Assembly: GCF_963921235.1 (NCBI RefSeq)
Contig: NC_086108.1
Span: forward strand, 3,224,001 to 3,288,000
Length of the DNA: 64,000 nt
Source of the DNA: Mobula hypostoma
Taxonomy: Eukaryota
Direction of reading: 5' to 3'
A model generated the notes under the pieces. It had not been told where the DNA came from and searched no databases. It saw nothing but the letters and a program-made list of their open reading frames with translations. Made by a program: the position numbers and the translations under genes. Below are positions 4,794 through 57,179 of the stretch, in pieces. Numbering within the stretch: the stretch's first letter is position 1; each line of letters opens with the position of its first letter.

Positions 4794-6020
4794 AGTGAAG
4801 TTATCTACACCGGTTCAGGAGCCTGATGGTTGAGGGGTAATAACTGTTCCTGAACCTGGTGGTGTGGGACCTGAGGCTCATTGTGGTGAGTGAAGTTATC
4901 CACACTGGTTCAGGAGCCTGATGGTTGAGGGGTAATAACTGTTCCTGAACCTGGTGGTGTGGGACCTGAGGCTCATTGTGGTGAGTGAAGTTATCCACAC
5001 TGGTTCAGGAGCCTGATGGTTGTGGGGTAATAACTGTTCCTGAACCTGCTGGTGTGGGACCTGAGGCTCATTGTGGTGAGTGAAGTTATCCACACTGGTT
5101 CAGGAGCCTGATGGTTGTGGAGTAATAACTGTTCCTGAACCTGGTGGTGTGGGACCTGAGGCTCATTGTGGTGAGTGAAGTTATCCACACTGGTTCAGGA
5201 GCCTGATGGTTGTGGGGTAATAACTGTTCCTGAACCTGGTAGTGTGGGACCTGAGGCTCATTGTGGTGAGTGAAGTTATCCACACTGGTTCAGGAGCCTG
5301 ATGGTTGTGGGGTAATAACTGTTCCTGAACCTGGTGGTGTGGGACCTGAGGCTCATTGTGGTGAGTGAAGTTATCCACACTGGTTCAGGAGCCTGATGGT
5401 TGTGGGGTAATAACTGTTCCTGAACCTGGTGGTGTGGGACCTGAGGCTCATTGTGGTGAGTGGAATTATCCCCGCTGGTTCAGGAGCCTGATGGTTGTGG
5501 GGTAATAACTGTTCCTGAACCTGGTGGTGTGGGACCTGAGGCTCATTGTGGTGAGTGAAGTTATCCACACTGGTTCAGGAGCTTGATGGTTGAGGGGTAA
5601 TAACTGTTCCTGAACCTGGTGGTGTGGGACCTGAGGCTCATTGTGGTGAGTGAAGTTATCCACACTGGTTCAGGAGCCTGATGGTTGTGGGGTAATAACT
5701 GTTCCTGAACCTGGTGGTGTGGGACCTGAGGCTCATTGTGGTGAGTGAAGTTATCCACACTGGTTCAGGAGCCTGATGGTTGAGGGGTAATAACTGTTCC
5801 TGAACCTGGTGGTGTGGGACCTGAGGCTCATTGTGGTGAGTGAAGTTATCCACACTGGTTCAGGAGCTTGATGGTTGAGGGGTAATAACTGTTCCTGAAC
5901 CTGGTGGTGTGGGACCTGAGGCTCATTGTGGTGAGTGAAGTTATCCACACTGGTTCAGGAGCCTGATGGTTGAGGGGTAATAACTGTTCCTGAACCTGGT
6001 GGTGTGGGACCTGAGGCTCC
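4794..6020 (-). repeat. 95-bp minisatellite, about 13 copies, derived from the 3' coding end of a Rex1/Babar-like LINE
   Basis: ttatc anchors recur every 95 bp from 4801 to 5941. The minus strand encodes SLRSHTTRFRNSYYPTTIRLLNQ, homologous to the LINE C-terminus FGNSFFPTVIRLLN at 463-1002. Confidence 0.95.
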
Positions 6021-16200: not shown

Positions 16201-19200
16201 AACACACACAAAATGCTGGAGGAACTCAGCAGGTCAGACAGTGTCGATGGCCAGAGTAACACACACAAAATGCTGGAGGAACTCAGCAGGTCAGACAGTG
16301 TCGATGGTCAGAGTAACACACACAAAATGCTGGAGGAACTCAGTGGGTCAGACAGTGTCGATGGTCAGAGTAACACACACAAAATGCTGGAGGAACTCAG
16401 CAGGTCAGACAGTGTCGATGGTCAGAGTAACACACACAAAATGCTGGAGGAACTCAGCAGGTTAGACAGTGTCGATGGTCAGAGTAACACACACAAAATG
16501 CTGGAGGAACTCAGCAGGTCAGACAGTGTCGATGGACAGAGCAACACACACAAAATGCTGGAGGAACTCAGCAGGTCAGACAGTGTTGATGGTCAGAGTA
16601 ACACACAGAAAATGCTGGAGGAACTTAGCGGGTCAGATAGTGTCGATGGTCAGAGTAACACACACAAAATGCTGGAGGAACTCAGCAGGTCAGACAGTGT
16701 CGATGGTCAGAGTAACACACACAAAATGCTGGAGGAACTCAGCAGGTCAGACAGTGTCGATGGTCAGAGTAACACACACAAAATGCTGGAGGAACTCAGC
16801 AGGTCAGACAGTGTCGATGGCCAGAGTAACACACACGAAATGCTGGAGGAACTCAGCAGGTCAGACATTGTCGATGGTCAGAGTAACACACAGAAAATGC
16901 TGGAGGAACTTAGCAGGTCAGATAGTGTCTCAGGTCAGAGTAACACACACAAAATGCTGGAGGAACTCAGCGGGTCAGACAGTGTCGATGGTCAGAGTAA
17001 CACACACAAAATGCTGGAGGAACTCGGCAGGTCAGACAGTGTTGATGGTCAGAGTAACACACACGAAATGCTGGAGGAACTCAGCAGGTCAGACAGTGTC
17101 GATGGTCAGAGTAACACACACGAAATGCTGGAGGAACTCAGCAGGTCAGACAGTGTCAATTGTCAGAGTAACACACACAAAATGCTGGAGGAACTCAGCA
17201 GGTCAGACAGTGTTGATGGTCAGAGTAACACACACGAAATGCTGAAGGAACTCAGCAGGTCGGACAGTGTCGATGGTCAGAGTAACAACACAAAATGCTG
17301 GAGGAACTCAGCAGGTCAGACAGTGTCGATGGTCAGAGTAACACACATAAAATGCTGGAGGAACTCAGCAGGTCAGACAGTGTCGATGGTCAGAGTAACA
17401 CACACAAAATGCTGGAGGAACTCAGCAGGTCAGACAGAGTCTATGGTCAGAGTAACACACACAAAATGCTGGAGGAACTCAGCAGGTCAGACAGTGTCGA
17501 TGGTCAGAGTAACACACACAAAATGCTGGAGGAACTCAGCAGGTCAGACAGTGTCGATGGTCAGAGTAACACACACAAAATGCTGGAGGAACTCAGCAGG
17601 TCAGACAGTGTCGATGGACAGAGTAACACACACAAAATTCTGGAGGAACTCAGCAGGTCAGACCGTGTCGATGGTCAGAGTAACACACACAAAATGCTGG
17701 AGGAACTCAGTGGGTCAGACAGTGTCGATGGTCAGAGTAACACACACAAAATGCTGGAGGAACTCAGCGGGTCAGACAGTGTCGATGGTCAGAGTAACAC
17801 ACACGAAATGCTGGAGGAACTCAGCAGGTCAGACAGTGTCGATGGTCAGAGTAACACACACGAAATGCTGGAGGAACTCAGCAGGTCAGACAGTGTCGAT
17901 GGTCAGAGTAACACAGACAAAATGCTGGAGGAACTCAGCAGGTCAGAGAGTGTCGATGGTCAGAGTAACACACACGAAATGCTGGAGGAACTCAGCCAGT
18001 CAGACAGTGTCTGAGGTCAGAGTAACACACACAAAATGCTGGAGGAACTCAGCAGGTCAGACAGCGTCGATGGTCAGAGTAACACACACGAAATGCTGGA
18101 GGAACTCAGCAGGTCAGACAGTGTCGATGGTCAGAGTAACACAGACAAAATGCTGGAGGAACTCAGCAGGTCAGAGAGTGTCGATGGTCAGAGTAACACA
18201 CACGAAATGCTGGAGGAACTCAGCCAGTCAGACAGTGTCTGAGGTCAGAGTAACACACACAAAATGCTGGAGGAACTCAGCAGGTCAGACAGCGTCGATG
18301 GTCAGAGTAACACAGACAAAATGCTGAAGGAACTCAGCGGGTCAGACAGTGTCGATGGTCAGAGTAACACACACAAAATGCTGGAGGAACTCAGCAGGTC
18401 AGACAGTGTTGATGGTCAGAGTAACACACACAAAATGCTGGAGGAACTCGGCAGGTCAGACAGTGTCGATGGTCAGAGTAACACACACAAAATGCTGGAG
18501 GAACTCAGCAGGTCAGACAGTGTCGATGGTCAGAGTAACACACACAAAATGCTGGAGGAACTCAGCAGGTCAGACAGTGTCGATGGTCAGAGTAACACAC
18601 ACAAAATGCTGGATGAATTCAGCAGGTCAGACAGTGTCGATGGTCAGAGCAACACACACAAAATGCTGGAGGAACTCAGCAGGTCAGAGAGTGTTGATGG
18701 TCAGAGTAACACACACAAAATGCTGGAGGAACTTAGCGGGTCAGATAGTGTCGATGGTCAGAGTAACACACACAAAATGCTGGAGGAACTCAGCAGGTCA
18801 GACAGTGTCGATGGTCAGAGTAACACACACAAAATGCTGGAGGAACTCAGCAGGTCAGACAGTGTCGATGGTCAGAGTAACACACACAAAATGCTGGAGG
18901 AACTCAGCAGGTCAGACAGTGTCTATGGACAGAGTAACACACACAAAATGCTGGAGGAACTCAGCAGGTCAGACAGTGTTGATGGTCAGAGTAACACACA
19001 CAAAATGCTGGAGGAACTTAGCGGGTCAGATAGTGTCGATGGTCAGAGTAACACACACAAAATGCTGGAGGAACTCAGCAGGTCAGACAGTGTCGATGGT
19101 CAGAGTAACACACACAAAATGCTGGATGAATTCAGCAGGTCAGACAGTGTTGATGGTCAGAGTAACACACACAAAATGCTGGAGGAACTTAGCGGGTCAG

Positions 19201-22200
19201 ACAGTGTCGATGGTCAGAGTAACACACACAAAATGCTGGAGGAACTCAGCAGGTCAGACAGTGTCGATGGTCAGAGTAACACACACAAAATGCTGGATGA
19301 ATTCAGCAGGTCAGACAGTGTCGATGGTCAGAGTAACACACACAAAATGCTGGAGGAACTCAGCAGGTTAGACAGTGTCGATGGTCAGAGTAACACACAC
19401 AAAATGCTGGAGGAACTCAGCAGGTCAGACAGTGTCGATGGACAGAGCAACACACACAAAATGCTGGAGGAACTCAGCAGGTCAGACAGTGTTGATGGTC
19501 AGAGTAACACACACAAAATGCTGGAGGAACTCGGCAGGTCAGACAGTGTCGATGGTCAGAGTAACACACACAAAATGCTGGAGGAACTCAGCAGGTCAGA
19601 CAGTGTCGATGGTCAGAGTAACACACACAAAATGCTGGAGGAACTCAGCAGGTCAGACAGTGTCGATGGTCAGAGTAACACACTCAAAATGCTGGATGAA
19701 TTCAGCAGGTCAGACAGTGTCGATGGTCAGAGTAACACACACAAAATGCTGGAGGAACTCAGCAGGTTAGACAGTGTCGATGGTCAGAGTAACACACACA
19801 AAATGCTGGAGGAACTCAGCAGGTCAGACAGTGTCTATGGACAGAGTAACACACACAAAATGCTGGAGGAACTCAGCAGATCAGACAGTGTCGATGGTCA
19901 GAGTAACAACACAAAATGCTGGAGGAACTCAGCAGGTCAGACAGTGTCGATGGTCAGAGTAACACACACAAAATGCTGGAGGAACTCAGCAGGTCAGACA
20001 GTGTCGATGGTCAGAGTAACACACACAAAATGCTGGAGGAACTCAGCAGGTCAGACAGTGTCGATGGTCAGAGTAACAGACACAAAATGCTGGAGGAACT
20101 CAGCAGGTCAGACAGTGTCGATGGACAGAGCAACACACACAAAATGCTGGAGGAACTCAGCAGGTCAGACAGTGTTGATGGTCAGAGTAACACACACAAA
20201 ATGCTGGAGGAACTCGGCAGGTCAGACAGTGTCGATGGTCAGAGTAACACACACAAAATGCTGGAGGAACTCAGCAGGTCAGACAGTGTCGATGGTCAGA
20301 GTAACACACACAAAATGCTGGAGGAACTCAGCAGGTCAGACAGTGTCGATGGTCAGAGTAACACACACAAAATGCTGGATGAATTCAGCAGGTCAGACAG
20401 TGTCGATGGTCAGAGTAACACACACAAAATGCTGGAGGAACTCAGCAGGTCAGACAGTGTCGATGGTCAGAGTAACACACACAAAATGCTGGATGAATTC
20501 AGCAGGTCAGACAGTGTCGATGGTCAGAGTAACACACACAAAATGCTGGAGGAACTCAGCAGGTTAGACAGTGTCGATGGTCAGAGTAACACACACAAAA
20601 TGCTGGAGGAACTCAGCAGGTCAGACAGTGTCGATGGACAGAGCAACACACACAAAATGCTGGAGGAACTCAGCAGGTCAGACAGTGTTGATGGTCAGAG
20701 TAACACACACAAAATGCTGGAGGAACTTAGCGGGTCAGATAGTGTCGATGGTCAGAGTAACACACACAAAATGCTGGAGGAACTCAGCAGGTCAGACAGT
20801 GTCGATGGTCAGAGTAACACACACAAAATGCTGGAGGAACTCAGCAGGTCAGACAGTGTCGATGGTCAGAGTAACACACACAAAATGCTGGAGGAACTCA
20901 GCAGGTCAGACAGTGTCGATGGTCAGAGTAACACACACAAAATGCTGGAGGAACTCAGCAGGTCAGACAGTGTCGATGGTCAGAGTAACACACACAAAAT
21001 GCTGGAGGAACTCAGCAGGTCAGACAGTGTCGATGGTCAGAGTAACACACACAAAATGCTGGAGGAACTCAGCAGGTCAGACTGTCGATGGACAGAGCAA
21101 CACACACAAAATGCTGGAGGAACTCAGCAGGTCAGACAGTGTTGATGGTCAGAGTAACACACACAAAATGCTGGAGGAACTTAGCGGGTCAGATAGTGTC
21201 GATGGTCAGAGTAACACACACAAAATGCTGGAGGAACTCAGCAGGTCAGACAGTGTCTATGGACAGAGCAACACACACAAAATGCTGGAGGAACTCAGCA
21301 GGTCAGACAGTGTTGATGGTCAGAGTAACACACACAAAATGCTGGAGGAACTCAGCAGGTCAGACAGTGTCGATGGTCAGAGTAACACACACAAAATGCT
21401 GGAGGAACTCGGCAGGTCAGACAGTGTCGATGGTCAGAGTAACACACACAAAATGCTGGAGGAACTCAGCAGGTCAGACAGTGTCGATGGTCAGAGTAAC
21501 ACACACAAAATGCTGGAGGAACTCAGCAGGTCAGACAGTGTCGATGGTCAGAGTAACACACACAAAATGCTGGATGAATTCAGCAGGTCAGACAGTGTCG
21601 ATGGTCAGAGTAACACACACAAAATGCTGGAGGAACTCAGCAGATTAGACAGTGTCGATGGTCAGAGTAACACACACAAAATGCTGGAGGAACTCAGCAG
21701 GTCAGACAGTGTCGATGGACAGAGCAACACACACAAAATGCTGGAGGAACTCAGCAGGTCAGACAGTGTTGATGGTCAGAGTAACACACACAAAATGCTG
21801 GAGGAACTCGGCAGGTCAGACAGTGTCGATGGTCAGAGTAACACACACAAAATGCTGGAGGAACTCAGCAGGTCAGACAGTGTTGATGGTCAGAGTAACA
21901 CACACAAAATGCTGGAGGAACTCGGCAGGTCAGACAGTGTCGATGGTCAGAGTAACACACACAAAATGCTGGAGGAACTTAGCGGGTCAGATAGTGTCGA
22001 TGGTCAGAGTAACACACACAAAATGCTGGAGGAACTCAGCAGGTCAGACAGTGTCGATGGTCAGAGTAACACACACAAAATGCTGGAGGAACTCAGCAGG
22101 TCAGACAGTGTCGATGGTCAGAGTAACACACACAAAATGCTGGATGAATTCAGCAGGTCAGACAGTGTCTATGGACAGAGTAACACACACAAAATGCTGG

Positions 22201-22450
22201 AGGAACTCAGCCGGTCAGACAGTGTCGATGGTCAGAGTAACACACACAAAATGCTGGAGGAACTCAGCAGGTCAGACAGTGTCGATGGCCAGAGTAACAC
22301 ACACAGAATGCTGGAGGAACTCAGCAGGTCAGACATTATCGATGGTCAGAGTAACACACACAAAATGCTGGAGGAACTTAGCAGGTCAGATAGTGTCTCA
22401 GGTCAGAGTAACACACACAAAATGCTGGAGGAACTCAGCAGGTCAGACAG
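13299..22450 (+). repeat. 57-bp satellite array, about 160 copies, derived from the terminus of a Penelope-like element
   Basis: Unit aacacacacaaaatgctggaggaactcagcaggtcagacagtgtcgatggtcagagt is repeated head-to-tail for about 9.15 kb with occasional 54-56 bp variants. The first ~40 nt match the dispersed pLTR sequence seen in reverse at 2839-2880 and 56404-56448. Confidence 0.97.
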
Positions 22451-24255: not shown

Positions 24256-25810
24256 TCAGTGCCCACTCTATTAGGTACACCTGTACACCTGCTCGTGAAT
24301 GCAAATATCTAATCAGCCAATCATGTAGCAGCAACTCAATGCATAAAAGCAGGCAGACACGGCCAAGAGGTTCAGCTGTTCTTCAGATCAAACGTCAGAA
24401 TGGGGAAGGAATATGATCTCAGTGACTTTGACTGTGGAATGATTGTTGGTGCCAGACGGGGTGGTTAGAGTATCTCAGAAACTCAGAATCACGTTTAATA
24501 TCACCGACATCTGTTGTGAAATTCGTTGTTTTGGGGCAGCAGTACATTGCAATACATAATATAAAGAACTATACGTGTACATATACATGTAAATTAAATA
24601 AGTAATGCACAAAGAGAGGGAAAAATTACTGAGGTAATGTTCATGGGTTTATTGTCCATTCAGAAATCTGAAGGTGGAGGGGAAGAAGCTGTTATAAAAC
24701 ATTGAGTGTCTGCCTTCAGACTCCTGTACCTCCTCCCTGATGGTAGTGAAGAGAAGAGGGCATGTCCTGTGTAATGGGCACTGTTTCCTCTAAGCTGCAT
24801 GGGTGCATGGGCACACAGTAACTGAAATGCTTCTGTGCACAAGAACTTCATTGCTGCGCAGCTGTAAATTTCTTGTACATAATGTTAATATAATTTTGAA
24901 ATCTGTGTAAATATAATTGTGAAATACCCTGTAATTAACTAAGTGTTAATGAATATACTCCATAAATTTTCTAAATAAAAAACATACCACAACCTTTACT
25001 TTGCAACATCTTAGAGCTTCAACATATTTACATTGTCAGTATTTCAAGTTACAACACTATTAAAAATTGTAACACTAACCACAGAAGGGAAGTCAGCAAT
25101 AGTTAGCATGTTATCAACTATTGTTGTTGTTAACAGACCGCTGGCCTACTCAACACCAACAGTTGGCACCATTGGAACATTTCAAGCTTCTAGTGCTGAC
25201 TGCGAACATAGATAAGTTTTATGAATTCAATCATGTAAATCCAGAAACAGACTAGAAGTGGAACACTTGGATGATCTAATGAGGATTAACTTGTACCTTT
25301 CATCTGGATGTGAAATTAATCAGGACAGTGTTTATAGACAGTGTATTTGTAATAAAGGCAGATGAGAAAAAGTTTATGATACGTGGAAGATTTTCTTTGT
25401 ACTGTATATAAACGTATCCGTCAATTAATAAATAAAACCAAACTATGTGATTTTTAAATTTTCATTCTAAATATTCATAATATGCATATTACAAAATAAA
25501 AGCATCTAAAATGCTGCACAGTTTTCAGGCTGTGTAAAAATTTCCTGCTCAGAGCTATGGTTGGTCTGCCCAGCAGAAGAAATGTTAGTGATCAGGTTCT
25601 TAATGATGGATGCAGTGCTGATCTCCTGGAGTTTTCAAACACACACACTCACCCAGAGTCTCAGCAGTTTACAGAGAATGGTGTGACAAACAAAACAAAA
25701 ACAGTGTGCAGCAGTTCTGCAGGAGAAAACATCTTGTAAATGGCGCATACCATGTCAAACCTTGAAATGGACAGGTGGACAGGCTGTAGCAGCAGAAGAC
25801 CACGGACATA
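24256..25810 (+). mobile_element. Tc1/mariner relic (transposase N-terminal HTH) split by nested insertions
   Basis: MGKEYDLSDFDCGMIVGARRGG..SET at 24400-24483 resumes ADLL...VYREWC near 25615. A TIR-like start occurs at 24256 and a matching end near 28075-28098. Confidence 0.75.
24778..25590 (+). mobile_element. hAT transposon relic (C-terminal dimerisation domain)
   Basis: GTFQASSADCEH...[frameshift]...KSRNRLEVEHLDDLMRI at about 25170-25290, matching the hAT S.A.CER.FS....K...RNRL motif. A related inverted fragment lies at about 30450-30700. Confidence 0.7.
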
Positions 25811-27660
25811 AGCTTTTATAGATATGTGAAAAGGAAAAGACTGGTAAAGACAAATGTAGGTCCCCTACAGACGGAAACAGGTGAATTGATTATGGGGAGC
25901 AAGGACATGGCAGACCAAATGAATAATTACTTTGGTTCTGTCTTCACTAAGGAGGACATAAATAATCTTACAGAAATTGTAGGGGACAGAGGGTCCAGTG
26001 AGATGGAGGAACTGAGCGAAATACAGGTTAGTACAGAAGTGGTGTTAGGTAAATTGAAGGGATTAAAGGCAGATAAATCCCCAGGGGCAGATGGTCTGCA
26101 TCCCAGAGTGCTTAAGGAAGTAGCCCAAGAAATAGTGGATGCATTAGTGATAATTTTTCAAAACTCGTTAGATTCTGGACTAGTTCCTGAGGATTGGAGG
26201 GTGGCTAATGTAACCCCACTTTTTAAAAAAGGAGGGAGAGAGAAACCGGGGAATTATAGACCGGTTAGCCTAACATTGGTGGTGGGGAAACTGCTGGAGT
26301 CAGTTATCAAAGATGTGATAACAGCACAATTGGAAAGCGGTGAAATCATCGGACAAAGTCAGCATGGATTTGTGAAAGGAAAATCATGTCTGACGAATCT
26401 CATAGAATTTTTTGAGGATGTAACTAGTAGAGTGGATATGGGAGAACCAGTGGATGTGGTATATTTGGATTTTCAAAAGGCTTTTGACAAGGTCCCACAC
26501 AGAAGATTAGTGTGCAAACTTAAAGCACACGGTACTGGGGGTAAGGTATTGATGTGGATAGAGAATTGGTTGGCAGACAGGAAGCAAAGAGTGGGAATAA
26601 ACGGGACCTTTTCAGAATGGCAGGCAGTGACTAGTGGGGTACCGCAAGGCTCAGTGCTGGGACCCCAGTTGTTTACAATGTATATTAATGACTTGGATGA
26701 GGGAATTAAATGCAGCATCTCCAAGTTTGCGGATGACACGAAGCTGGGTGGCAGTGTTAGCTGTGAGGAGGATGCTAAGCGGATGCAGGGTGACTTGGAT
26801 AGGTTAGGTGAGTGGGAAAATTCATGGCAGATGCAACTTAATGTGGATAAATGTGAAGTTATCCACTTTGGTGGCAAAAACAGGAAAGCAGATTATTATC
26901 TGAATGGTGGCCGATTAGGAAAAGGGGAGGTGCAACGAGACCTGGGTGTCATTATACACCAGTCATTGAAAGTGGGCATGCAGGTACAGCAGGCGGTGAA
27001 AAAGGCGAATGGTATGCTGGCATTTATAGTGAGAGGATTCGAGTACAGGAGCAGGGAGGTACTACTGCAGTTGTACAAGGCCTTGGTGAGACCACACCTG
27101 GAGTATTGTGTGCAGTTTTGGTCCCCTAATCTGAGGAAAGACATCCTTGCCTTAGAGGGAGTACAAAGAAGGTTCACCAGATTGATTCCTGGGATGGCAG
27201 GACTTTCATATGAAGAAAGACTGGATGAACTGGGCTTGTACTCGTTGGAATTTAGAAGATTGAGGGGGGATCTGATTGAAACATATAAAATCCTAAAGGG
27301 ATTGGACAGGCTAGATGCAGGAAGATTATTCCCGATGTTGGGGAAGTCCAGAACGAGGGGCCACAGTTTGAGGATAGAGGGGAAGCCTTTTAGGACCGAG
27401 ATTAGGAAAAACTTCTTCACACAGAGAGTGGTGAATCTGTGGAATTCTCTGCCACAGGAAACAGTTGAGGCCAGTTCATTGGCTATATTTAAGAGGGAGT
27501 TAGATATGGCCCTTGTGGCTAAAGGGATCAGGGGGTATGGAGGGAAGGCTGGTACAGGGTTCTGAGTTGGATGATCAGCCATGATCGTACTGAATGGCGG
27601 TGCAGGCTCGAAGGGCCGAATGGCCTACTCCTGCACCTATTTTCCATGTTTCTCTGTTTA
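25810..27660 (+). mobile_element. Young 5'-truncated CR1 LINE with uninterrupted 579-aa RT ORF
   Basis: ORF 25826-27565 contains NYRPVSLT, QHGFVKGKSCLTNL, YLDFQKAFDKV, SGVPQGSVLGP, FADDTK and RPHLEYCVQFWSP, followed by the CR1 3' UTR (gggccgaatggcctactcctgc) and a tgtttct tail. Confidence 0.95.
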
Positions 27661-43779: not shown

Positions 43780-46575
43780 TCTCTGCGGGTGAAAGTTATG
43801 AACAGGAAGGGGTCAATAACTTTACTGCAACACACATAAAAGCTGCTGGTGAACGCAGCAGGCCAGGCAGCATATCTAGGAAGAGGTACAGTCGACGTTT
43901 CGGGCCGAGACCCTTCATGAGTCCTGGCCTGCTGCATTCACCGGCAACTTTTATGTGTGTTGCTTGAAATTCCAGCAGCTGCAGATTTCCTCATGTTTGC
44001 AATAACTCTACTGGGTGTTTTTTATAGACCACCCAATAATAACAGGGACATCAAGGAGCAGATAGGGAGACAGATTCTGGAAAGGAGTAATAATAACAGG
44101 GTTGTTGTGGTGGGAGATTTTAATTTCCCAAATATTGATTGGCATCTCCCTAGAGTGAGGGGTTTAGATGGGCTGGAGTTTGTTAGGTGCGTACAGGAAG
44201 GTTCCTTGACACAATATGTAGATAAGCCTATAAGAGGAGGGGCTGTACTTGGATCTGGTATTGGGAAATGAACCTGGTCAGGTGTCAGGTCTCTCAGTGG
44301 GAAAGCATTTTGGAGATAGTGATCACGATTCTATCTTCTTTACCATAGCATTGCAGAGGGATAGGAACTGACAAGTTAGGGAAACGTTTAATTGGAGTAA
44401 GGGGAAATATGAGGCTATCAGGCGGGAACTTGGAAGCATAAATTGGAAACAGATGTTCTCAGGGAAACGTGAGGAAGAAATGTGGCAAATGTTCAGGGGA
44501 TAGTTGTGTGGTGTTTTGCATAGGTACGTTCCAATGAGACAGGGAAAGGATGGTAAGGTACAGGAACTGTGGTGTATAAAGGCTGGTGTAAACCTAGTCA
44601 AGAAGGAAAGAAGAGCTTACGAGAGGTTCAAAAAACTAGGTAATGAAAGAGATCTAGAAGGTTATAAGGCTAGCAGGAAGGAGCTTAAGAATGAAATTAG
44701 GAGAGCCAAAAGGGGCCATGAGAAGGCCTTGGCGGACAGGATTAAGGAAAACCCCAAGGCATTCTACAAGTATGTGAAGAGCAAGAGGATAAGACGTGAG
44801 AGAATAGGACCAATCAAGTGTGACAGTGGAAAAGTGTGTATGGAACCAGAGGAGATAGCAGAGGTACTTAATGAATACTTTGCTTCAGTATTCACTATGG
44901 AAAAGGATCTTGGTGATTGTAGGGATGACTTGCAGTGGACTGAAAAGTTTGAGCACGTAGATATTAAAAAAGAGAATGTGCTGGTGCTTTTGGAAAGCAT
45001 CAAGTTCGATAAATCACCGGGACCGGACTAGATGTACCTCAGGCTACTGTGGGAAGCGAGAAGGAGATTGCTGAGCCTCTGGCAATGATCTTTGCATCAT
45101 CAATGAGGATGGGAGAGGTTCTGGAGGATTTGAGGGTTATGGATGTTGTTCCCTTATTCAAGAAAGGGAGTAGGAATAGCCCAGGAAATTATAGACCAGT
45201 GAGTCTTACTTCAGTGGTTGGTAAGTTGATGGAGAAGATCCTGAGAGGCAGGATTTATGAACATTTGGAGAGGCATAATATGATTAGAAATAGTCAGCAT
45301 GATTTTGTCAAAGTCAGGTTGTGCCTTACTAGCCTGATTGAATTTTTTGAGGATGTGATTAAACACACTGATGAAGAAAGAGCAGTAGATGTAGTGTATA
45401 TAGATTTCAGCAAGGCATTTGATAAGGTACCCAATGCAAGGCTTATTGAGAAAGTAAGGAGGCATGGGATCCAAGGGGACATTGCTCTGTGGATCCAGAA
45501 CTGGCTTGCCCACACAAGGCAAAGAGTGGCTGTATACGGGTCATATTCTGCATGGAGGTCAGTGACCAGTGGAGTGTCTCAGGGATCTGTTCTGGGACCC
45601 CTACTCCGTGAATTTTATAAATGACCTGGATGAGGAAGTGAAGGAATGGGTTAATAAGTTTTCTGATGACACAAAGCTTGGGAGTGTTGTAGATAGTGTG
45701 GAGGGTTGTCAGAGATTACAGCAGGACATTGATAGGATGCAAAACTGGGCTGTGAAGTGGCAGATGGATTTCAACCCACGTAAGTGTGAGGTGGTTCATT
45801 TTGGTAGGTCAAATATGATGGCAGAATGTAGTATTAATGGTAAGACTCTTGGCAGTGTGGAGGATCAGCGGGATCTTGGGGTCCGAGTCCATAGGACACT
45901 CAAAGCTGCTACGCAGGTTGACTCCAGTTAAGAAGGCATACGGTGCATTGGCCTTCATCAATTGTGGAATTGAGTTTAACAGCCGAGAGTAATGTTGCAG
46001 ATATATAGAACCCTGGTCAGATCCCACTTGGAGTACTGTGCTGGGTTCTGGTCACCTCACTACAGGAAGGATGTGGAAACCATAGAAAGGCTACAGAGAA
46101 GATTTACAAGGATGTTGCCTGGATTGGGGAGTGTGCCTTATGAGAATAAGTTGAGTGAACTTGGCCTTTTCTCCTTGGAGCAACGGAGGATGAGAGGTGA
46201 CCTGACAGAGATGTATAAGATGATGAGAGACATTGATCATGTGGATAGTCAGAGGCTTTTTCCCAGGGCTGAAATGGCTAGCATGAGAGGGCATAGTTTT
46301 AAGGTGCTTGGAAGTATGTACAGAGGAGATGTCAGGGGTAAGTTTTTTACGCAGAGAGTGGTGAGTGTGTGGAATGGGCTGCCAGTGGCAGTGGTGGTGG
46401 AGGCGGATACGATAGGGTCTTTTAAGAGGCTCCTGGATGGGTACATGGAGCTTAGAAAAATAGAGGGCTATGGGTAAGCCTAGGTCGTTCTAAGGTAGGG
46501 ACATGTTCAGCACAGCTTTGTGGGCCGAAGGGCCTGTATTGTGCTGTAGGTTTTCTATGTTCTATGTTTCTATGT
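43780..46575 (+). mobile_element. CR1 LINE ORF2 (endonuclease C-half to 3' end), frameshifted
   Basis: GVFYRPP, KENPKAFYKY, NYRPVSLTS, DFSKAFDKV, FSDDTK and HLEYC motifs, with a (tatgtttc)n tail. Closely similar to the 42095-42840 copy. Confidence 0.92.
43828..43999. mobile_element. Short Penelope-like insertion with inverted pLTR arms, 14-bp TSD
   Basis: TSD caataact(t/c)tactg at 43814-43827 and 44000-44013 within a CR1; inverted arms gcaacacacataaaag...caggccagg and cctggcctg...ttttatgtgtgttgc. Confidence 0.85.
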
Positions 46576-50909: not shown

Positions 50910-51270
50910 GGTTGGTGGCGGGGTGGAGCTACGTCTCTACCAAAGGAGGTGTGAGGTGCTCTTTCTCTCCACTGGCCTGCAGGTCACCCTTGGGCGAGGT
51001 GTAGCACCTGCTTAGCCCCTCTCCCTGATCAGGGGCAGGTGAAGCCATGGGGGAAGGTATGAGCAGCTGGTGCATATCACAAGTTCTAGTTACGTAACCG
51101 CTGACGCCGGGCAGACAATCTCTGAAGAGTATTGATCATGGCTGGGGTCACCCGTCTTGTAAAGACACTGCCCAGAAGAAGGCAATGGCAAACCACTTCT
51201 GTAGAAAAATTTGCCAAGAACAATCCTGGAAAGACCACGATTGCCCACGTCATATGACACGGCACATAAT
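50910..51270 (+). repeat. Unclassified ~350-bp interspersed repeat
   Basis: acgtctctaccaaaggaggtg...aaaccacttctgtagaaaa recurs at 27680-28060(-), 37085-37295(+) and 37880-38230(-). Confidence 0.8.
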
Positions 51271-53377
51271 GATAATGTCTTACGACGCAGTGCATAATGA
51301 ATAAACAAGCGTCAAAACGTCCTTGGACGTCAACGACCAACGCAATCCAAGGACGTGTTGGGAGCAGGCCACACGTGTCACTATGCTTCTGGTGGCAACC
51401 TTGTATGTGTTCTACTTACTAATCCCAATCCGTCCGTGTTTGGAACCTGGAGCATCCAGCAGGAAACCACACGGTCACAGGGAGAACATACCAACAAAAC
51501 AGCAGGGGGAATGGAACCCCGGTCAAGGGTGGTGTCCAGTGTTTTGTTAACCGCTACACTACCCTGTCACCCACACCTCATCTGATGTTCTCCCATTGAC
51601 GAGTCACAAGCTCCCTCTCCACAATGATCTTGTAAATGCTCTGCTGTATCTCATCGCCATAGTAACACTCCAGAAGAGCTTGAAATGATTTAGGGACGGG
51701 GATGGTTTAGAGGTCAGGCCAGAGTCCAAGCCATGGAGAGAATTAAGGGTGATTAAAGGCAGGTAGGTGGAGATGAGTCCATGGTCAGATCAGCCATGAT
51801 CATATTGAATGGTGGAGCAGGCTCGACGGGCCAGATGGTCGACTCCTGATCCTATTTCTTATGTTCTCATGTTTGGAAGCCAGTGACGCAGACATAGGAC
51901 GTACGTAGTCAGATGTTGGGCTAGCAGACCAGCGCAGACAAGAGTCAGCAAGTTGGCGGCAGGTCCTGGGGTTGTTGTTCCGTGCGGACAGGAGGACAGT
52001 GGGCTGATGACCCCCTAGTTGCGCAAGTCAGCGAGACTGGACCGCAAGGTTTGGTGTCTGGGTCTGGTGTCCTGTCGTTGGCCGGTCCAGGGCCCAAGGG
52101 TTTGGTGACTGGTGAGTCCTGAGGTTGATACCGAAGGTCGGTCAGAAGATTGACTGGAAGTCCGGAGTCGAGGCTGTGAATATCCGTGAGTCCACTGGGG
52201 AAGTAAAAAGCCCAAGGTCTGCGAGTCCGAGGCGACTGCGAGCTGGAGTCTGAAGACAGCCTGTCCTGTCCTGGGTTTGGAGGACTGTGCATGTAGGTGG
52301 GAGAGAGGAACGAGGCTTGTTTCACCGGCCACCAACTTAGTTCTACTTCCCAATTCCATTCCAACATATCAGTCCAAGGCCTCCACTACTGTCGCAATGA
52401 GGCCACACTCAGGCTGGAGGGGTAGCACCGTATATTCCATCTGGGTAGCCTCCAACCTGATGGCATGAACATCGATTTCTCAAACATTGGGTAATTGATC
52501 CCCCCCTGCGCCATTCCCATTCCCAATTCCCTCTCTCACCTTTCAAGGACACTACTGAACAGACGTGGAGAGGATCTTTCTAACAGCGGAAGAGTCGAGG
52601 ACCAGAGGGCACAGCCTCAGAATAAAGAATGTGATGAAGAGGAATTTCATTAGCCAGAGGCTGGTGAATCGGTGGAATTCATTGTCACAGACGGCTATGG
52701 AGGCCAAGCCATCGGATATATTGAAAGCAGAAGTTGATTAGTCAGGTGCCAAAGGTTATGGGAAAAAGGTAGGAGAATGGGATGGAGAGGGGAAGTAAAT
52801 CAGTCATGATGGAATTGCAGAGCAGACTTGATGGGCAGAACGGCCTAATTCTGCTCCTCTGTCTTATGGTCTAATGAACCTGGGTCTCTGATGCTGGGAG
52901 GCAAGGCCACTGCACTGCCTTTTTTACCAGCCCTGTCAACTCAGGGGTAATTAAGGAGAGACGGTCTTTGTTGGCAATGCCTGTAATGTCCACATTCTAA
53001 CAACAGACAAATCTTTAAAAAAGACCTTATTGCCCTGCAAAGCTGTTTCTCCTGTCTGAAGTGTTTTTCTTGGATTGACTTTCATCAGGAATGTTCCACT
53101 AATAGCTGTCAAGTTCTTCCCCCCTCTCCCAGCAGACCCCCTTAATATTAATACAGTGTTAATGATCTGTGATCAAATGCATCAGAATTGTCCTCCACCA
53201 ACCAGAATTGCCCTCGTTCGATGAGCGTGTTAATTGGGTACGTGTTAATTAAGAAGCTTGTATGTAGTTCAGGATTCAGGAGAGGTGGAGACAGGAGCAA
53301 CCTCTTAGCCTGGTCTTTCCAGCCTTGCTCCTTTGTGCGTATTTTGGTTTCGCTGCTAGGAGACATTTCCCGTCGAG

Positions 53378-54496
53378 ATGCCCAGAGGATTTCTGGTCAG
53401 AAGGAAGAAGAGGGTTATGCCACGCAATGCGAGAGGGAGACAGGTCATGGGTTACCCTGACGATGGTCCCGACCCATGGACCTGGACTGGGGTTCACGGG
53501 AAGGGACTGAGGGAACGATCCAGCACAGTGAGGTTGTGGAACCAAAGTACTTTCTCCAGTGGGTTGTCAGCGTCAGATGATGCGGTTCACACCGTGACCA
53601 GATCACTGGCCAGGGAGACTGTCACATCTTCAACCCTTCAGTCAAGAAAAACATCAAGTCTTCCTGAGGCACCAGGACAGAGCAGTGTGGACTCATTGGT
53701 GGGAGAACTATGTGGCCTTGCAGGTCAGGTCAACACAACAAACCCCGTGGAGCAGAGTGCCAGACACAGGGCAGGACACACCAGTGACATGAAGAGCCTG
53801 AGCTGTGATGTTCTAGGGGCATACGTTTGCCGGTTGTGTGGTGATGAATACACAGACTGCTTTGCTCTGGCTCGACACAAATGCTCTGGGATAGTCCGGG
53901 TAGAATATCGGTGCTTGGAGTGTAGCAAGGTCTTTGGCTGCCTGGCCAACCTGGCCTCTCACCGCCGGTGGCACAAGCCTTCCCAGAATACCACCAGCCG
54001 CGGCAGGAAGAGGGCAGCACGGCGCCCAACTCTCAGGGGTTCATATGGTTGCCCAGGAAGCAAGGAGAGATCAGCTAATCCACTGAATCCGAACATACCT
54101 TCACCTCAGGTGGAGGGTGCGTTGCAGATCCACCGAGACAATGGCACCAAGTCAGTAAGGATGGAGACGTCTGCATGTGTGACTCCGCTGTACTGGACAG
54201 ACAATAACCTTCAACCCGGCCTCTTTCAGGGTCCCGTATATCCGCTGGATGGTCAGTGTGTGCTAGGCCATTCTTCCAGACCCAAGGCCTCACCGTGTCC
54301 ATCCCAGGCTGCCGAGGTCTTTAAGGATGGCATCCATAGTGTCGAGGTCTCCCAGCGCACGGTGGAGGCCATTCCTTGCAGGTGCCCCCTGGGAAGTGTC
54401 TTTACTACACCTGAAGCAAGAAGGCAGATGAGCGAACTAAAGATCGTGGAGAACAGTCAGGAGGTATCGCAGCTACAGGGGAGAAGAGGCTACTAA
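53378..54496 (+). CDS. INSM-family (insulinoma-associated, SNAG + C2H2 zinc finger) transcription factor, intronless, divergent; only ZF1-ZF2 intact
   Basis: 372-aa single-exon ORF starting [12 protein letters not shown], matching the SNAG motif of INSM1/2 (MPRGFLVKR). It contains [56 protein letters not shown] (about 53813-53980), matching the INSM ZF1 (C2HC-type, HKC) + RIVRVEYRC linker + ZF2 ([12 protein letters not shown]). Orthology within the family is not resolved. Confidence 0.93.
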
Positions 54497-54579
54497 CCAT
54501 ACCAGCTACTCGCTCAGGACCATCACCCCTCATCTCCATTCGTCTGACCATGATGTGGATGTATGCCTTTACCTTGCTG

Positions 54580-54965
54580 TCACTGAGTGTACGTCCGTGG
54601 TCTTCTGCTGCTGTAGTCTATCCACTTCAAGGTTTGATGTGTTGTGTGTTCAGAGGTGCGCTTGTGCACACCACTGTTGTAACGTGTGGTTGTTTAAGTA
54701 ACTGTCGCCTTCCTGTCAGCTTGAACCAGTCTGGCTGTTTACTTCTGATCTCTCTCATTAACAAGGCGTTTTCACCCTCTCTAGATATTTTGTGTTTTTT
54801 GCACCATTCTCTGTAAACCCTAGAGGCTGCTGTGCATGAGAATCCCAGGAGATCAACTGTTTCTGAGATACTCAAACCACCCTGTCTGGTACCAACAATC
54901 GTTCCACGGCCGAAGTCACGTAGATCACATTTCTTCTCTGTTATGATATTTGGTTGAACAGCCAC
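54580..54965 (-). mobile_element. Tc1/mariner relic
   Basis: KKCDLRDFGRGTIVGTRQGGLSISETVDLLGFSCTAASRVYREWC. Confidence 0.8.
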
Positions 54966-55505
54966 TGAACTCCCAAGTCCCTTTGCACCTCTGATTTTTG
55001 AACTTTCTCCCCATTTAGAAAATGGTCCAAGTTTTTAGTCCTTCTACTGAGGTGCATGGCCATGCACTTCCCCACACGATATTCCATCTGCCACTTCTTT
55101 GCCCATTATTCTGATCTGTGTAAGTCCTTCTGCAGATACCCTGCTTCCTCAACGCTACCTGCCTGTCTGCCTATCTTTGTGTTGTCCACAAACTTGGTCA
55201 CAAAGCTGTCAATCCCATCATCCAAATCATTGACATATAAAGTAAAACGAAGGGGTCCCAATATTAACCCCTGAGGAACACCACTAGTCACTGGCAGCCA
55301 AGCAGAATAGGCCCCCTTTATTCCCACTCACTTCCTCCTGCCAGTCAGCCAATCCGCTATCCATATTTTTACCTTTTCTGTAATACCATGCACTCTCATC
55401 TTCTTCAGCAGCCTCGTTTGCGGCACCTTGACAAAGGCCTTCTGAAAACCCCAATAAACGACAAAACACTGACTCCGCTTTGTCTGTCCTGCTTGTTATT
55501 TCACT
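54965..55505 (-). mobile_element. CR1 RT fragment
   Basis: WLPVTSGVPQGLILGP...YVNDLDDG...KFVDNTK. Confidence 0.85.
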
Positions 55506-55564
55506 GATGTATGCTGTGAAGTTTGTTGTTTTGTGGCACTGAGGTATGAAAAAAAATGCAAAAC

Positions 55565-56215
55565 GTGCATTAAAAAGTAATGATGCAAAATACAGATGTG
55601 CAATGAAACCATATCGTTGTATACTTGAGGAGGAGGAGTTGTAGTCTCATAGCCACAGGGAGGAAGGATCTCCCGTGACGTTCAGTGCTGAACCTCAGAG
55701 GAATTAGCCTGTTACTAAAGGTGCTCCTCTGTTTGTCCAGCACGTCATGGAGGGGGTGAGAGGGATTGTCCATAAAGCTCCGTAGTTTCTGCAGGATCCT
55801 CCTCTCCGACACAACCACCAGGGAATCCAGTTCCACCCCCAGAACAGAACCAGCCTTCCCGACGAGCTTATCCATGTTCTTGGCGTCAGCTGCTCTCACC
55901 CTGCTGCCCCAGCGGACTGGAATGCTGGCCACCACTGAGTCGTAGAACATCTGCAGCAGAGTACGGCCGATGCTGAATGACCGGAGCCTCCTCAGGAAGC
56001 ACAGTCACCTCTGTCCCTTCTTGTAAGGAGCCACAGTGTATTGTCCAGGTGACTTTCCAGATACTGTAGTCCCAGATGACTTCTAATTCCATTCCCTTGA
56101 TGGAGATGGGAATACAGGGTGTTTTCACCTTCCTGAAGTCCACCACCAACTCCTTCATCTTAGTGATATTGAGCTGCAGGTGATTCATCCCACGCCCCTC
56201 AATAAAGTTGTCCAC
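55565..56215 (-). mobile_element. Rex1/Babar/L2-like LINE 3' fragment
   Basis: NHLQLNITKMKELVVDFRK; FYDSVVAS; MDNPSHPLH...TERHGRSFLPVAMRL. Confidence 0.8.
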
Positions 56216-56450
56216 CACTCTTCTGTTCTCAGCCTCTTGACCTCACCAGCCCTTTGTCTTTCCCATCCACCTGGCTTCACCTATCACCTTCTCGCTATCC
56301 TCCTTCCCTTCCCCTGCACTTTTATTCTGGAGTCTTCCCCCTTCCTTTCCAGTCCTGATGGAGGGTCTTGGCCCGAAACGTCGACTGTTTATTCATTTCC
56401 ATGGATGCTGCCTGACCTGCTGAGTTCCTCCAGCGTTTTTGGTGTGTGTG
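56215..56450 (+). mobile_element. Penelope-like pLTR fragment with hammerhead-like motif
   Basis: cagtcctgatggagggtcttggcccgaaacgtcgactg at 56350-56387. Confidence 0.8.
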
Positions 56451-57179
56451 GCTCTACAACTCATTTTCTCAGTACTATGTATTTACTTATTTATTTAGTG
56501 ATATAATTATTATTTTTTTGTATTTGCACAGTTTGCCTTTTGCACATTGGTCGTTTGTCAGTGTTTGTTTGTGTGTCGTATTTCTTCAATGGAGTGGATG
56601 TAGAGAGGATGTTTCCTATAGTGGGGGAGTTTTGAACCTGATGATATAAACTCAAAATAAAGGGACGTTCCTTCAGAACAGAGATGAGGAGGAATTTCTT
56701 TAGCCAGAGAGTGGTGAATCTGTGGAATTCATTGTCACAAAGGCTGTGGAGACCAAGTTATTGGGTATATTTAAGGCAGAGGTTGATTGATTCTTGATTG
56801 GTCAGGGATGAATACCGGGAGAAGACAGGAGAATGGATCGGTCATGATGAAATGGTGAAGCAGATTCATTGGAATAATTCTCCTCCTACATCCTACTGTC
56901 TAATTGTCTATATTGTGTTTCTTTGTTCTACTGTGAATGCCTGCAAGAAAACAAATCTCAATGCTGACTATTTAATAATAAATTTACTTTGGATTTAAGT
57001 GCAAAAAAGAGCAAAGTAGTACTTTCTGAAGTAAGACTATTCCATTGAAAATGTTTTAAAAATAGATACATAACTTAAATGTTTTCTCACTTTTAAAATT
57101 TTCTCTTATTTTCTTATAAGAAAGGAGAGGCCATTTGGCCCATTGATTCAGAACTGGTTCACAGAAATTCCTATGGGTC

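Follow-up and report, generated by a model that had tools for sequence, protein, structure and literature searches.

INSM1 and INSM2, the closest described relatives of the gene reported here, are intronless and encode proteins with five zinc fingers. A recent proposal, set out in PMC11880201, holds that other factors tether INSM1, which acts as a co-repressor and not as a sequence-specific DNA binder. According to that paper, the first finger (ZF1) binds TEAD1 with a KD of 39.5 nM, in a way that resembles the binding of Nerfin-1 to Sd, and five ZF1 residues (I268, L271, P279, F280 and A283) are crucial for TEAD in the yeast two-hybrid system. ZF2 and ZF3 bind DNA weakly and without specificity, ZF4-5 bind it very weakly, and residues 221-256 bind CTCF, FOXA2 and NEUROD1. 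Nerfin-1, the Drosophila homologue of INSM, with its partner Scalloped, and the SNAG repressors GFI1 and SNAI1 are further parallels, likened by their descriptions: in each, contacts between proteins let a SNAG or a finger module do the recruiting or tethering. GFI1 and the SNAI proteins differ in binding DNA specifically through their own fingers.

The window is a stretch of 64,000 nucleotides of Mobula hypostoma DNA (contig NC_086108.1, positions 3,224,001 to 3,288,000), on the chromosome here called C50. It carries a gene whose protein resembles INSM1 in its SNAG motif, CCHC ZF1 and C2H2 ZF2; in an alignment to structure 8JPY it shares 44 of 57 residues with human INSM1. Like the INSM1-type gene of its own genome, on chromosome C22, it has a single exon, is collinear from the start to the C-terminal motif, and has a RIN-type neighbour. 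It differs from INSM1 in lacking the ligands of ZF3-5, in its degenerate pre-ZF1 block, in having Cys for P279, and in its chromosome. On balance we take it to be a functional, fast-evolving fourth vertebrate member of the INSM family, most likely descended by genome duplication and so far seen in elasmobranchs only. Neither a third nor a fourth INSM clade, nor the name 'insm3', was found in the literature searched on INSM phylogeny, duplication and cartilaginous fish. A supplement of the ohnolog database paper PMC13450315 has neither an INSM entry nor gene tables, and the database may still list the family.

Four INSM loci in one genome

An own-genome search returned 177 matches, four of them at E <= 1.4e-20, one each on C50, C1, C22 and C82; the next best stands at 0.0096. 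C22 carries a five-finger INSM1-type locus, C1 a five-finger INSM2-type locus, and C82 a locus of a third clade with three fingers, all on separate chromosomes, while the window gene on C50 has two fingers. This makes the window gene the genome's fourth INSM locus. The initial annotation had called it a candidate third paralogue, a count that has to be corrected since a distinct third clade has its own locus on C82. Its view that the gene is not an INSM1 or INSM2 orthologue is borne out; it had proposed looking for separate five-finger loci for both, and these are the genes on C22 and C1.

In the protein tree, the window protein groups with proteins from Pristis and Heterodontus (100/99), outside INSM2 (99/99), INSM1 (96/90) and the third clade (100/100). 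The stem of this group measures 2.34 changes per column, and AU tests do not reject joining the group to chondrichthyan INSM1 (dlnL 4.65, p 0.136) or to the INSM2 clade (dlnL 2.75, p 0.149). Because of the long stem and the non-rejecting tests, the sequences alone do not show an ancient split, and the tree by itself cannot place the window clade. With respect to INSM1, the window gene lies outside the clade and a separate gene exists on C22, with joining not rejected; with respect to INSM2, a separate gene exists on C1, with sister status not rejected.

The third clade, whose members have three or four fingers, occurs in chondrichthyans, coelacanth, salamanders, caecilians, bichirs, paddlefish and elopomorphs (P0121-P0135 and others, annotated 'insm1-like', '1a-like' and '1b-like'). 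It resembles the window gene as an extra paralogue absent from the amniotes sampled, with fingers reduced to three or four in 20 of 20 rows, with SNAG and ZF1-2 kept, and with P279 replaced by Ala in its elasmobranch members. Unlike the window gene, it forms a distinct clade (100/100) with bony-vertebrate members and still has ZF3, the canonical C-terminus and the pre-ZF1 block. It is also slower, with 74% identity to Pristis against 60% for the window protein; for the same species pair the window gene evolves about three times faster than its C82 paralogue (path to Pristis 0.95 versus about 0.28). The automatic labels 'INSM1-like', '1a-like' and '1b-like' conceal two further paralogy groups.

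The coding region and its orthologues

The window ORF begins with ATG and is uninterrupted over 372 amino acids in the ORF listing. Listing and motif scan together confirm what had been read from the letters, an intact frame with SNAG, INSM-type ZF1 and ZF2, and no more C2H2 fingers (Table 1). Aligned with five-finger INSM proteins, the protein is collinear all the way from Met1 to the motif at the C-terminus. With one ORF that spans this whole length, collinear with intronless paralogues, the coding region appears to be intronless as well.

Table 1. Features of the fourth INSM-family gene, in window coordinates
Feature	Position	Strand	Remarks
CDS of fourth INSM-family gene	53378..54496	+	single exon; 372 codons, stop at 54494-54496
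SNAG motif	53378..53413	+	aa 1-12
ZF1, atypical CCHC finger	53822..53884	+	aa 149-169; C151..C169, C-x2-C-x12-H-x-C
ZF2, C2H2 finger	53906..53974	+	aa 177-199; C179..H199
Decayed ZF3 relic (YGCPGSK...LQIHR)	54044..54136	+	aa 223-253; second Cys and first His ligands missing
Decayed ZF5 relic	54371..54433	+	aa 332-352; His ligands missing
Relic of canonical INSM C-terminal motif (SENRQV.LLQ)	54446..54478	+	aa 357-367; from paralogue alignment

Within the SNAG motif, 10 of 12 residues are identical in every pairing of three orthologues. Across 34 INSM rows, at least 90% carry each of M1, P2, G4, F5, L6, V7 and R9; position 8, where Lys predominates, is Arg in the window protein. The N-terminus aligns with PRGFLVKRSKK of the INSM1 chain in PDB 3ZMS, a segment that by itself falls below significance, and from this motif identity it is a putative LSD1-binding SNAG. 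All 34 of the INSM proteins aligned have the ZF1 ligands C151, C154, H167 and C169, and the ZF2 ligands C179, C182, H195 and H199 are likewise invariant in the alignment. Residues 145-201 match 8JPY, the solved structure of human INSM1 ZF1-ZF2, at E = 2e-25. In the ZF2 helix, C188, N191 and S194 correspond to the human INSM1 DNA-contact positions C306, N309 and S312, as these are given in PMC11880201.

ZF3, ZF4 and ZF5 of the canonical five-finger architecture are absent from the protein, which has two finger motifs. A regular-expression scan of the three forward frames of 53001-55600 found no finger beyond ZF1 and ZF2; an extra match at 55168 crosses a stop codon. When the three other INSM proteins of the genome were searched by tblastn, neither the window nor some 110 kb of flanking sequence yielded further finger relics, the remaining matches having E > 0.2. 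Within the frame, every column of the ZF3 relic has its counterpart in the ZF3 of the paralogues on C22, C1 and C82, and the ZF5 relic aligns with the paralogue ZF5, FPCKYC..TF.SSPGLTRHINKCH; the Heterodontus orthologue retains YCPATFLAASGLMRQ there. These alignments show that fingers 3-5 decayed where they stood, with loss of zinc ligands. What is left of the C-terminal motif puts the stop codon close to the ancestral gene end. Ahead of ZF1, the genome's other three paralogues share a conserved block (..FEDEVTTSPVLGL.IKE..), of which the window protein keeps only T-x-P-V and Heterodontus less. An assembly error that conceals fingers 3-5 was considered and is ruled out by the same architecture in Pristis and Heterodontus.

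The best database match to the window protein is the Pristis orthologue P0001 (376 amino acids, 60% identity, 98% coverage, E = 8.3e-133). The Heterodontus orthologue P0002 (463 amino acids, 89% coverage) is full-length and collinear, and the Rhincodon orthologue P0223 is a partial model that lacks the SNAG start and has the clade-specific states in common. Only four indel events separate the window gene from Pristis, their whole-codon sizes following from the way the protein alignment was built. Conservation is concentrated in SNAG and ZF1-2. Between the window protein and Heterodontus, identity is 10/12 in SNAG and 46/58 in ZF1-2, and 38/126 in the N linker and 46/156 in the tail; over the orthologue comparisons, ZF1-2 reach 46-50/58 against 30-52% for the linkers.

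These comparisons bear on whether the gene could be a copy without function that is breaking down, its frame still open only by chance and the loss of three fingers being the visible decay. Fingers 3-5 and the pre-ZF1 block are indeed degenerate, most of the protein is predicted to be disordered, and the gene is annotated in few species. It has no CpG island, the observed/expected ratio being 0.31-0.51 against 0.33 for the window. When random substitution of the window CDS was simulated, however, with indels ignored, the frame stayed open in 3 of 2,000 runs at 62% amino acid identity and in none of 2,000 at 40%, while the real frame is open and collinear in Mobula, Pristis and Heterodontus. 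All eight zinc ligands of ZF1-2 and the SNAG are kept beside the diverged linkers, the stop codon is at the ancestral position, and the marks of a pseudogene (frameshifts, premature stops, uniform neutral divergence) were not found. We regard decay as very improbable. The open, collinear orthologues and the neutral simulation argue, as the initial annotation did, against a dead pseudogene, and by these comparisons the ORF is a real gene and appears to be functional.

The window gene has orthologues in only three named species, against nine named elasmobranch species for the third-clade gene in similar searches; it is either often lost or often unannotated. Database searches showed no orthologue in chimaera, bony vertebrates or cyclostomes. 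As for other genes in the window, a Pfam search of 44 of its 91 stop-to-stop ORFs of at least 110 amino acids gave only reverse-transcriptase fragments, weak matches and translated satellite. A high-copy repeat lies at about 54550-54800. Over 53200-54800, contigs from three sequencing runs with the same species label (word share 0.00) covered this repeat and no part of the ORF, a result that has no bearing on expression.

Neighbouring genes and origin

Marker families for the synteny comparison were chosen by their human map positions. At C50:3,176,884, at a distance of 100 kb from the window gene, there is a VPS9 exon. Exons with the same limits and the same core (GADDFLP..EYMMELLD..GEG) occur also on C22, C82 and C1, and six other VPS9 loci lack both features. 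From the exon limits and the motif we take these genes to be RIN-type; the protein atlas gave a generic VPS9 domain. On C22 the RIN-type exon and the INSM1-type gene are 300 kb apart. Alpha-actinin is represented by four exons, on C50, C1, C22 and C82, with 34-47 of 48-49 residues identical, and one Rap_GAP subfamily is found on C50, C82, C1 and C2. Alpha-actinin and Rap_GAP paralogues are within 3.7 Mb of the window gene, and other copies are on other INSM chromosomes. The alpha-actinin and RIN-type paralogues occupy exactly the four INSM chromosomes; by arithmetic from chromosome sizes, the chance that four genes fall one on each of these is about 1.8e-5. The RIN-type, alpha-actinin and Rap_GAP subfamilies thus give the pattern of an ohnologue block.

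Other families differ in what they contribute. Glycogen phosphorylase has three genes, on C22, C1 and C82, with no C50 copy; cofilin has no C50 copy, and the forkhead genes of C50 lie only at 53-66 Mb. These three families support C82 as part of the paralogon and add nothing for C50. The Sds3 domain (PF08598), tried as a marker for BRMS1-type neighbours, was dropped when dispersed repeats swamped the search.

The neighbours of the window gene are most like those of INSM2, with which it shares the family core: the RIN-type exon of C50 is identical to the C1 copy at 32 of 41 residues, against 24 of 41 for the C22 copy, and its alpha-actinin exon matches that of C1 at 47 of 49. INSM2 may be its nearest ohnologue. 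INSM2 differs in its five fingers and in its RALGAPA-type neighbour, with exons 60 kb from the gene on C1; C50 has no RALGAPA-type gene. The tree is neutral on a sister relation between the two.

A later duplication would account for part of the evidence. The window gene would then be a copy of INSM1, INSM2 or the third-clade gene made within cartilaginous fishes, which diverged fast and lost fingers 3-5, its outside position in the tree being a long-branch artefact. The very long stem, the AU tests that reject joining to neither chondrichthyan INSM1 nor INSM2, and orthologues seen only in elasmobranchs all agree with this, and a retrocopy would look alike because INSM genes are intronless. 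Against such a copy speak the RIN-type paralogue 100 kb away, parallel to the arrangement at the INSM1-type gene on C22, and the alpha-actinin and Rap_GAP paralogues close by; by arithmetic, a copy inserted at random would come to lie within 100 kb of one of the four RIN-type genes with a probability of about 2.3e-4. Since the RIN-type exon of C50 is nearer to C1 than to C22, it is not a recent copy of the C22 block, which makes recent duplication of a RIN2-INSM1 block unlikely. We consider a duplication within cartilaginous fishes improbable.

Descent by the early-vertebrate genome duplications is likely. With no orthologue seen outside elasmobranchs, this origin rests on synteny in one genome. 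The initial annotation had suggested an ohnologue lost in mammals: synteny and searches fit an ancient origin with loss outside elasmobranchs, and the tree leaves room for a duplication specific to cartilaginous fishes (AU p 0.136). If the ohnologue origin is true, the INSM duplication history, for a family of key neuroendocrine and sensory-cell regulators, is complete: there were four ancient copies, and mammals have kept two of them. The broader claim, that elasmobranchs keep all four INSM ohnologues and that selection pared the fourth to a minimal core of SNAG and ZF1-ZF2, goes further and is doubtful.

Proposed mode of action

On this reading the window gene began as a five-finger INSM gene. 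Zinc ligands were lost from fingers 3, 4 and 5 where these stood, and purifying selection probably kept SNAG, the CCHC ZF1 and the C2H2 ZF2. The gene product may work in the nucleus as an adaptor for co-repression. Its SNAG peptide, like that of INSM1, would dock into LSD1/CoREST, and its ZF1 would hold it on a partner that is bound to DNA, for which TEAD, the partner shown for human INSM1 ZF1, is a candidate. Sequence-specific DNA binding of its own is presumably absent, since the protein lacks ZF3, the finger through which INSM1 mainly contacts DNA. The degenerate pre-ZF1 block would by position lie in or next to the human INSM1 region that binds CTCF, FOXA2 and NEUROD1, so the range of partners is probably narrower than that of INSM1. 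We put forward LSD1 recruitment, which the initial annotation had suggested together with altered DNA binding, and tethering by TEAD or another partner, as a tentative assignment, with somewhat less than an even chance of being right.

In this protein the kept SNAG, ZF1 and ZF2, set against the decayed ZF3-5 and pre-ZF1 block, offer an independent evolutionary test of the tethered co-repressor model of INSM1 in PMC11880201. If the proposal is true, the gene is a natural separation-of-function form, which shows INSM proteins at work as LSD1/CoREST adaptors tethered by TEAD or another partner, with no need of fingers 3-5 or of DNA recognition of their own. The gene is a candidate extra regulator for elasmobranch development; a role in neuroendocrine, lateral-line or electrosensory lineages is speculation.

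The initial annotation also raised the idea of a competitor of INSM1. As a decoy, a SNAG protein unable to reach DNA would titrate LSD1/CoREST or TEAD away from INSM1, GFI1 or SNAI-type repressors. The loss of ZF3 fits a decoy, as does the unconserved block by ZF1, in or beside the CTCF/FOXA2/NEUROD1-binding region given in PMC11880201. The five residues crucial for TEAD correspond to V150, L153, C161, F162 and A165 of the window protein, three identical (L, F, A), one a conservative change (I to V), and P279 replaced by Cys in three species and by Ser in Rhincodon, which may weaken TEAD binding. A pure SNAG decoy, however, would not need ZF1 and ZF2, which are the best conserved parts. A decoy thus seems unlikely.

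Structure predictions bear on the tethered adaptor that we prefer. AlphaFold is confident only over about residues 149-199 (block means of 80-91 for residues 151-200), with a short helix at 161-166 in ZF1 and another at 189-198 in ZF2. The ZF3 relic is predicted to be disordered, with pLDDT below 50 over most of it; the ZF5 relic is also below 50, and the tail is disordered. A predicted complex of residues 140-205 of the window protein with a shark TEA domain, run without alignments and with added zinc, which is outside the calibration, received weak support, 0.39 against 0.01 for the best of three controls. Of 78 solved complexes 51 attained the mark, as did 2 of 108 mismatched pairs; just 5 of the 78 attained it with scores of 0.60 or below, as did every one of the 4 mismatches that passed (of 180). 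Three runs share at least 77% of contacts, with partner pLDDT of at least 66, and as a prediction the complex points to tethering and away from a decoy.

A fourth, two-fingered INSM gene

The window contains a 372-codon ORF running without interruption from ATG through stop, and the encoded protein begins [12 protein letters not shown]. A regular-expression search of the translated ORF finds just ZF1, a C-x2-C-x12-H-x-C finger, and ZF2, a C2H2 finger. The three forward frames across 53001-55600 give no further finger, the sole extra match spanning a stop codon. Pfam yields only weak generic C2H2 matches at residues 177-201, all below gathering scores. The initial annotation, which described an intact ORF with two fingers and none further, agrees with these results; its designation of the gene as a candidate third INSM paralogue has to be changed to fourth. 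The window corresponds to positions 3,224,001-3,288,000 of contig C50 (G000) in a 3.48-Gb assembly. A six-frame search of this assembly with the window protein finds four strong loci, each at E <= 1.4e-20, with a fifth match at E = 0.0096. Separate five-finger INSM1 and INSM2 loci, as a tBLASTn-type check was meant to reveal, lie on contigs C22 and C1, and the gene on C82 occupies a separate third clade. In a protein tree (64 rows, 415 columns, LG+C20 PMSF, careful search), the window protein groups with one protein each from Pristis and Heterodontus; their shared stem is 2.34 changes per column long, and this clade falls outside the INSM1, INSM2 and third clades at 90/87. The genome's other paralogues are placed among sequences of rays and skates, which marks the species as a batoid. 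The window gene is therefore the fourth INSM paralogue of the M. hypostoma genome.

Coordinates of the INSM loci, the parts of the window protein and neighbouring features (positions without a contig are those of the window; aa, residues of the window protein)
Feature	Position	Strand	Description
Window gene (C50)	53378..54496	+	372 aa; 2 fingers; own clade (100/99)
ZF1	aa 151-169	+	regular expression on translated ORF
ZF2	aa 179-199	+	regular expression on translated ORF
ZF3 relic	aa 223-253	+	alignment to paralogues
ZF5 relic	aa 332-352	+	alignment to paralogues
Canonical C-terminal motif relic	aa 357-367	+	alignment to paralogues
INSM1-type gene	C22:86.57 Mb		424 aa from its MPRGFLVKR; 5 fingers; INSM1 clade (96/90)
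INSM2-type gene	C1:64.19 Mb		477 aa; 5 fingers; INSM2 clade (99/99)
Third-clade gene, L004	G000:C82:11,219,932-11,223,174 (11.22 Mb)	-	365-aa ORF, canonical C-terminus retained; 3 fingers; third clade (100/100)
VPS9 exon	C50:3,176,884-3,177,033		100 kb upstream of window gene
95-bp unit, second short copy	3253-3434		1.4 kb upstream of main array
95-bp tandem array	4794-6019		12.9 copies, 97% matches
57-bp satellite	13300-22450		9-kb array; 160.7 copies, 95% matches
Reverse-transcriptase frame (PF00078)	25790-27562	+	E = 1.1e-31
Reverse-transcriptase frame (PF00078)	45013-45621	+	E = 9.8e-19
Very high-copy short repeat	~54550-54800		immediately 3' of the stop codon
First AATAAA downstream of stop	55453

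Among the papers searched, none listed describes an INSM clade beyond INSM1 and INSM2. In PMC10982350, an Insm tree served only to sort sturgeon and paddlefish annotations into Insm1 and Insm2.

A word-indexed protein search returned 769 proteins at E <= 0.001 among 2,759 candidates. Only two match over the whole length: P0001 from Pristis pectinata ("insulinoma-associated protein 1-like", 376 aa, 60% identity, 98% coverage) and P0002 from Heterodontus francisci ("1a-like", 463 aa, 38% identity, 89% coverage). The remaining matches score 109 bits or less, mainly over fingers 1-2. A three-sequence profile, searched against 1.84 billion representatives, recovers the same two proteins at 760 and 640 bits, with the third-best at 147 bits, among 1,387 matches at E <= 0.001. 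A partial Rhincodon typus gene model, P0223 (215 aa, lacking the SNAG start), carries the clade's own residue states in ZF1-2 and upstream. In RefSeq, these orthologues are automatic models with INSM1-type names.

The window, Pristis and Heterodontus proteins align end to end, with four indel events, of 7, 3, 3 and 3 residues, between window and Pristis. Identity to Pristis and Heterodontus, respectively, is 10/12 and 10/12 in SNAG, 50/58 and 46/58 in ZF1-ZF2, 68/131 and 38/126 in the N-terminal linker, and 98/165 and 46/156 in the tail. In a neutral simulation, the window CDS was randomly substituted down to the observed amino-acid identity, 2,000 runs each, ignoring indels and hence lenient; the frame stayed open in 3/2,000 runs at 62% identity and 0/2,000 at 40%. 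This makes a dead copy very unlikely, and the initial claim that this is no dead pseudogene is borne out by the simulation and by the concentration of identity in SNAG and ZF1-2.

Over its tail, the window protein stays collinear with INSM proteins that have five fingers, and the stop codon is close to the ancestral end. The segments that align with ZF3, ZF5 and the C-terminal motif show that fingers 3-5 lost their zinc ligands in place; the ZF5 relic is clearer in Heterodontus. A block upstream of ZF1, common to the other three paralogues, is cut to T-x-P-V. AlphaFold2, given a 34-row alignment, is confident in the two fingers only (10-residue block means of 80-91 for 151-200, with helices spanning 161-166 and 189-198), and the remainder of the protein mostly scores below 50. 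We conclude that the window gene is genuine and under constraint, an INSM-family member whose reduced architecture is new.

Gene neighbourhoods and origin

The outside position in the tree is also what long-branch attraction towards the outgroup would produce. AU tests reject neither a union of the window-gene clade with chondrichthyan INSM1 (dlnL 4.65, p 0.136) nor one with the INSM2 clade (dlnL 2.75, p 0.149). The protein tree is therefore silent on origin, and gene neighbourhoods were examined, with marker families chosen from the human paralogous regions around INSM1 and INSM2.

The VPS9 exon upstream of the window gene has counterparts with equal limits and a GADDFLP..EYMMELLD..GEG core on C82, C1 and C22, the last 300 kb from the INSM1-type gene; neither feature occurs at the genome's other six VPS9 loci. 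We label the four RIN-type, from exon limits and motif. For alpha-actinin, the four C-terminal exons map to C50 (6.91 Mb), C1, C22 and C82, with 34-47 of 48-49 residues identical; a fifth match, on C67, is an outlier. One Rap_GAP subfamily is found on C50 (4.79 Mb), C82 (130 kb from the INSM gene there), C1 and C2, and RALGAPA-type exons adjoin the INSM2-type and INSM1-type genes. Phosphorylase has three genes, on C22, C1 and C82. By our own arithmetic, the chance of four genes falling one each on C50, C1, C22 and C82 is ~1.8e-5, from contig sizes, and the chance that a randomly placed gene would end up 100 kb or less from one of the four RIN-type genes is ~2.3e-4.

Recent copying of the C22 block is argued against, because the C50 RIN-type and alpha-actinin exons are nearest the C1 copies (32/41 identical, versus 24/41 for C22, by our own count from the alignment, and 47/49). 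The C22 RIN-type exon is nearest the C82 copy. The two exon families suggest two duplications ordered as (C50, C1) and (C22, C82), and there are hints that INSM2 is the nearest ohnologue of the window gene. With evidence from one genome only, we regard an ohnologue origin as likely; the gene is probably an old one of this kind that elasmobranchs alone have retained.

TEAD interface and the third clade

The structure of human INSM1 ZF1-ZF2 (PDB 8JPY) matches residues 145-201 at E = 2e-25, and the INSM1 chain of 3ZMS opens with the PRGFLV of the window protein. According to PMC11880201, human INSM1 ZF1 has a CCHC fold and binds the TEAD domain of TEAD1 with a KD of 39.5 nM, I268, L271, P279, F280 and A283 being crucial; ZF2 and ZF3 bind DNA at micromolar strength without specificity, ZF3 more strongly, and ZF4-5 very weakly; the region that binds CTCF, FOXA2 and NEUROD1 is residues 221-256. 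Mapped onto the window protein by the 8JPY alignment, the TEAD-critical positions are V150, L153, C161, F162 and A165. In place of P279, the three full-length orthologues have Cys and the Rhincodon model has Ser. The DNA-contact positions of the INSM1 ZF2 helix are retained (C188, N191, S194). Compared with human INSM1 as described there, the window protein retains the putative LSD1-docking peptide and partner-tethering finger but has lost the main DNA-contacting finger, ZF3; the FOXA2/NEUROD1/CTCF-binding block is probably lost as well.

Residues 140-205 were modelled together with a shark TEA domain (from the TEAD protein P0365) and two zinc ions, a riding ligand outside the calibration; no alignments were used. 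The predicted complex scored 0.39, against 0.01 for the best of three controls, and was classed as "weak support". In calibration, the mark was reached by 51/78 solved complexes and 2/108 mismatched pairs; scores at or below 0.60 comprised 5 of the 78 solved complexes and all 4 of the passing mismatches (among 180). Contact agreement between runs is at least 77%, and partner pLDDT is at least 66. The prediction gives a small push towards retained TEAD binding. SNAG would dock LSD1 and ZF1 would tether the protein to its partner, making the window protein a plausible, putative SNAG-dependent tethered co-repressor.

The third INSM clade of gnathostomes comprises 20 rows of the tree (support 100/100), every row with 3-4 fingers. 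Orthologues of the C82 protein occur in 9 named elasmobranch species; after them, its best matches come from salamander, caecilian, coelacanth, bichir, paddlefish and eel. The clade as a whole ranges over the 9 named elasmobranchs, chimaera, coelacanth, salamanders, caecilians, bichirs, paddlefish and elopomorph teleosts, annotated under INSM1-type names; among the proteins seen, amniotes and most teleosts seem to lack it. In elasmobranch third-clade ZF1 (e.g. P0121, P0123), the P279 equivalent is Ala and the F280 equivalent Leu, in 9/9 rows including the C82 protein of M. hypostoma itself. Judged by these residues, both extra paralogues may have an altered TEAD-binding ZF1 interface.

Surroundings of the gene

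No other host gene was seen within the 64-kb window, which is repeat-rich. Across 51001-57000, no CpG island lies at or upstream of the gene (observed/expected 0.31-0.65 per 500-bp bin, versus 0.33 for the whole window). Hundreds of short contigs from three same-species runs pile up, at 90-95% likeness, on the repeat 3' of the stop codon; contigs of these runs leave the ORF uncovered, which has no bearing on expression. The two reverse-transcriptase frames are LINE-type retroelement fragments. The 57-bp satellite has strong strand asymmetry (AT skew ~0.36) and yields long spurious open frames matching unrelated Pfam families.
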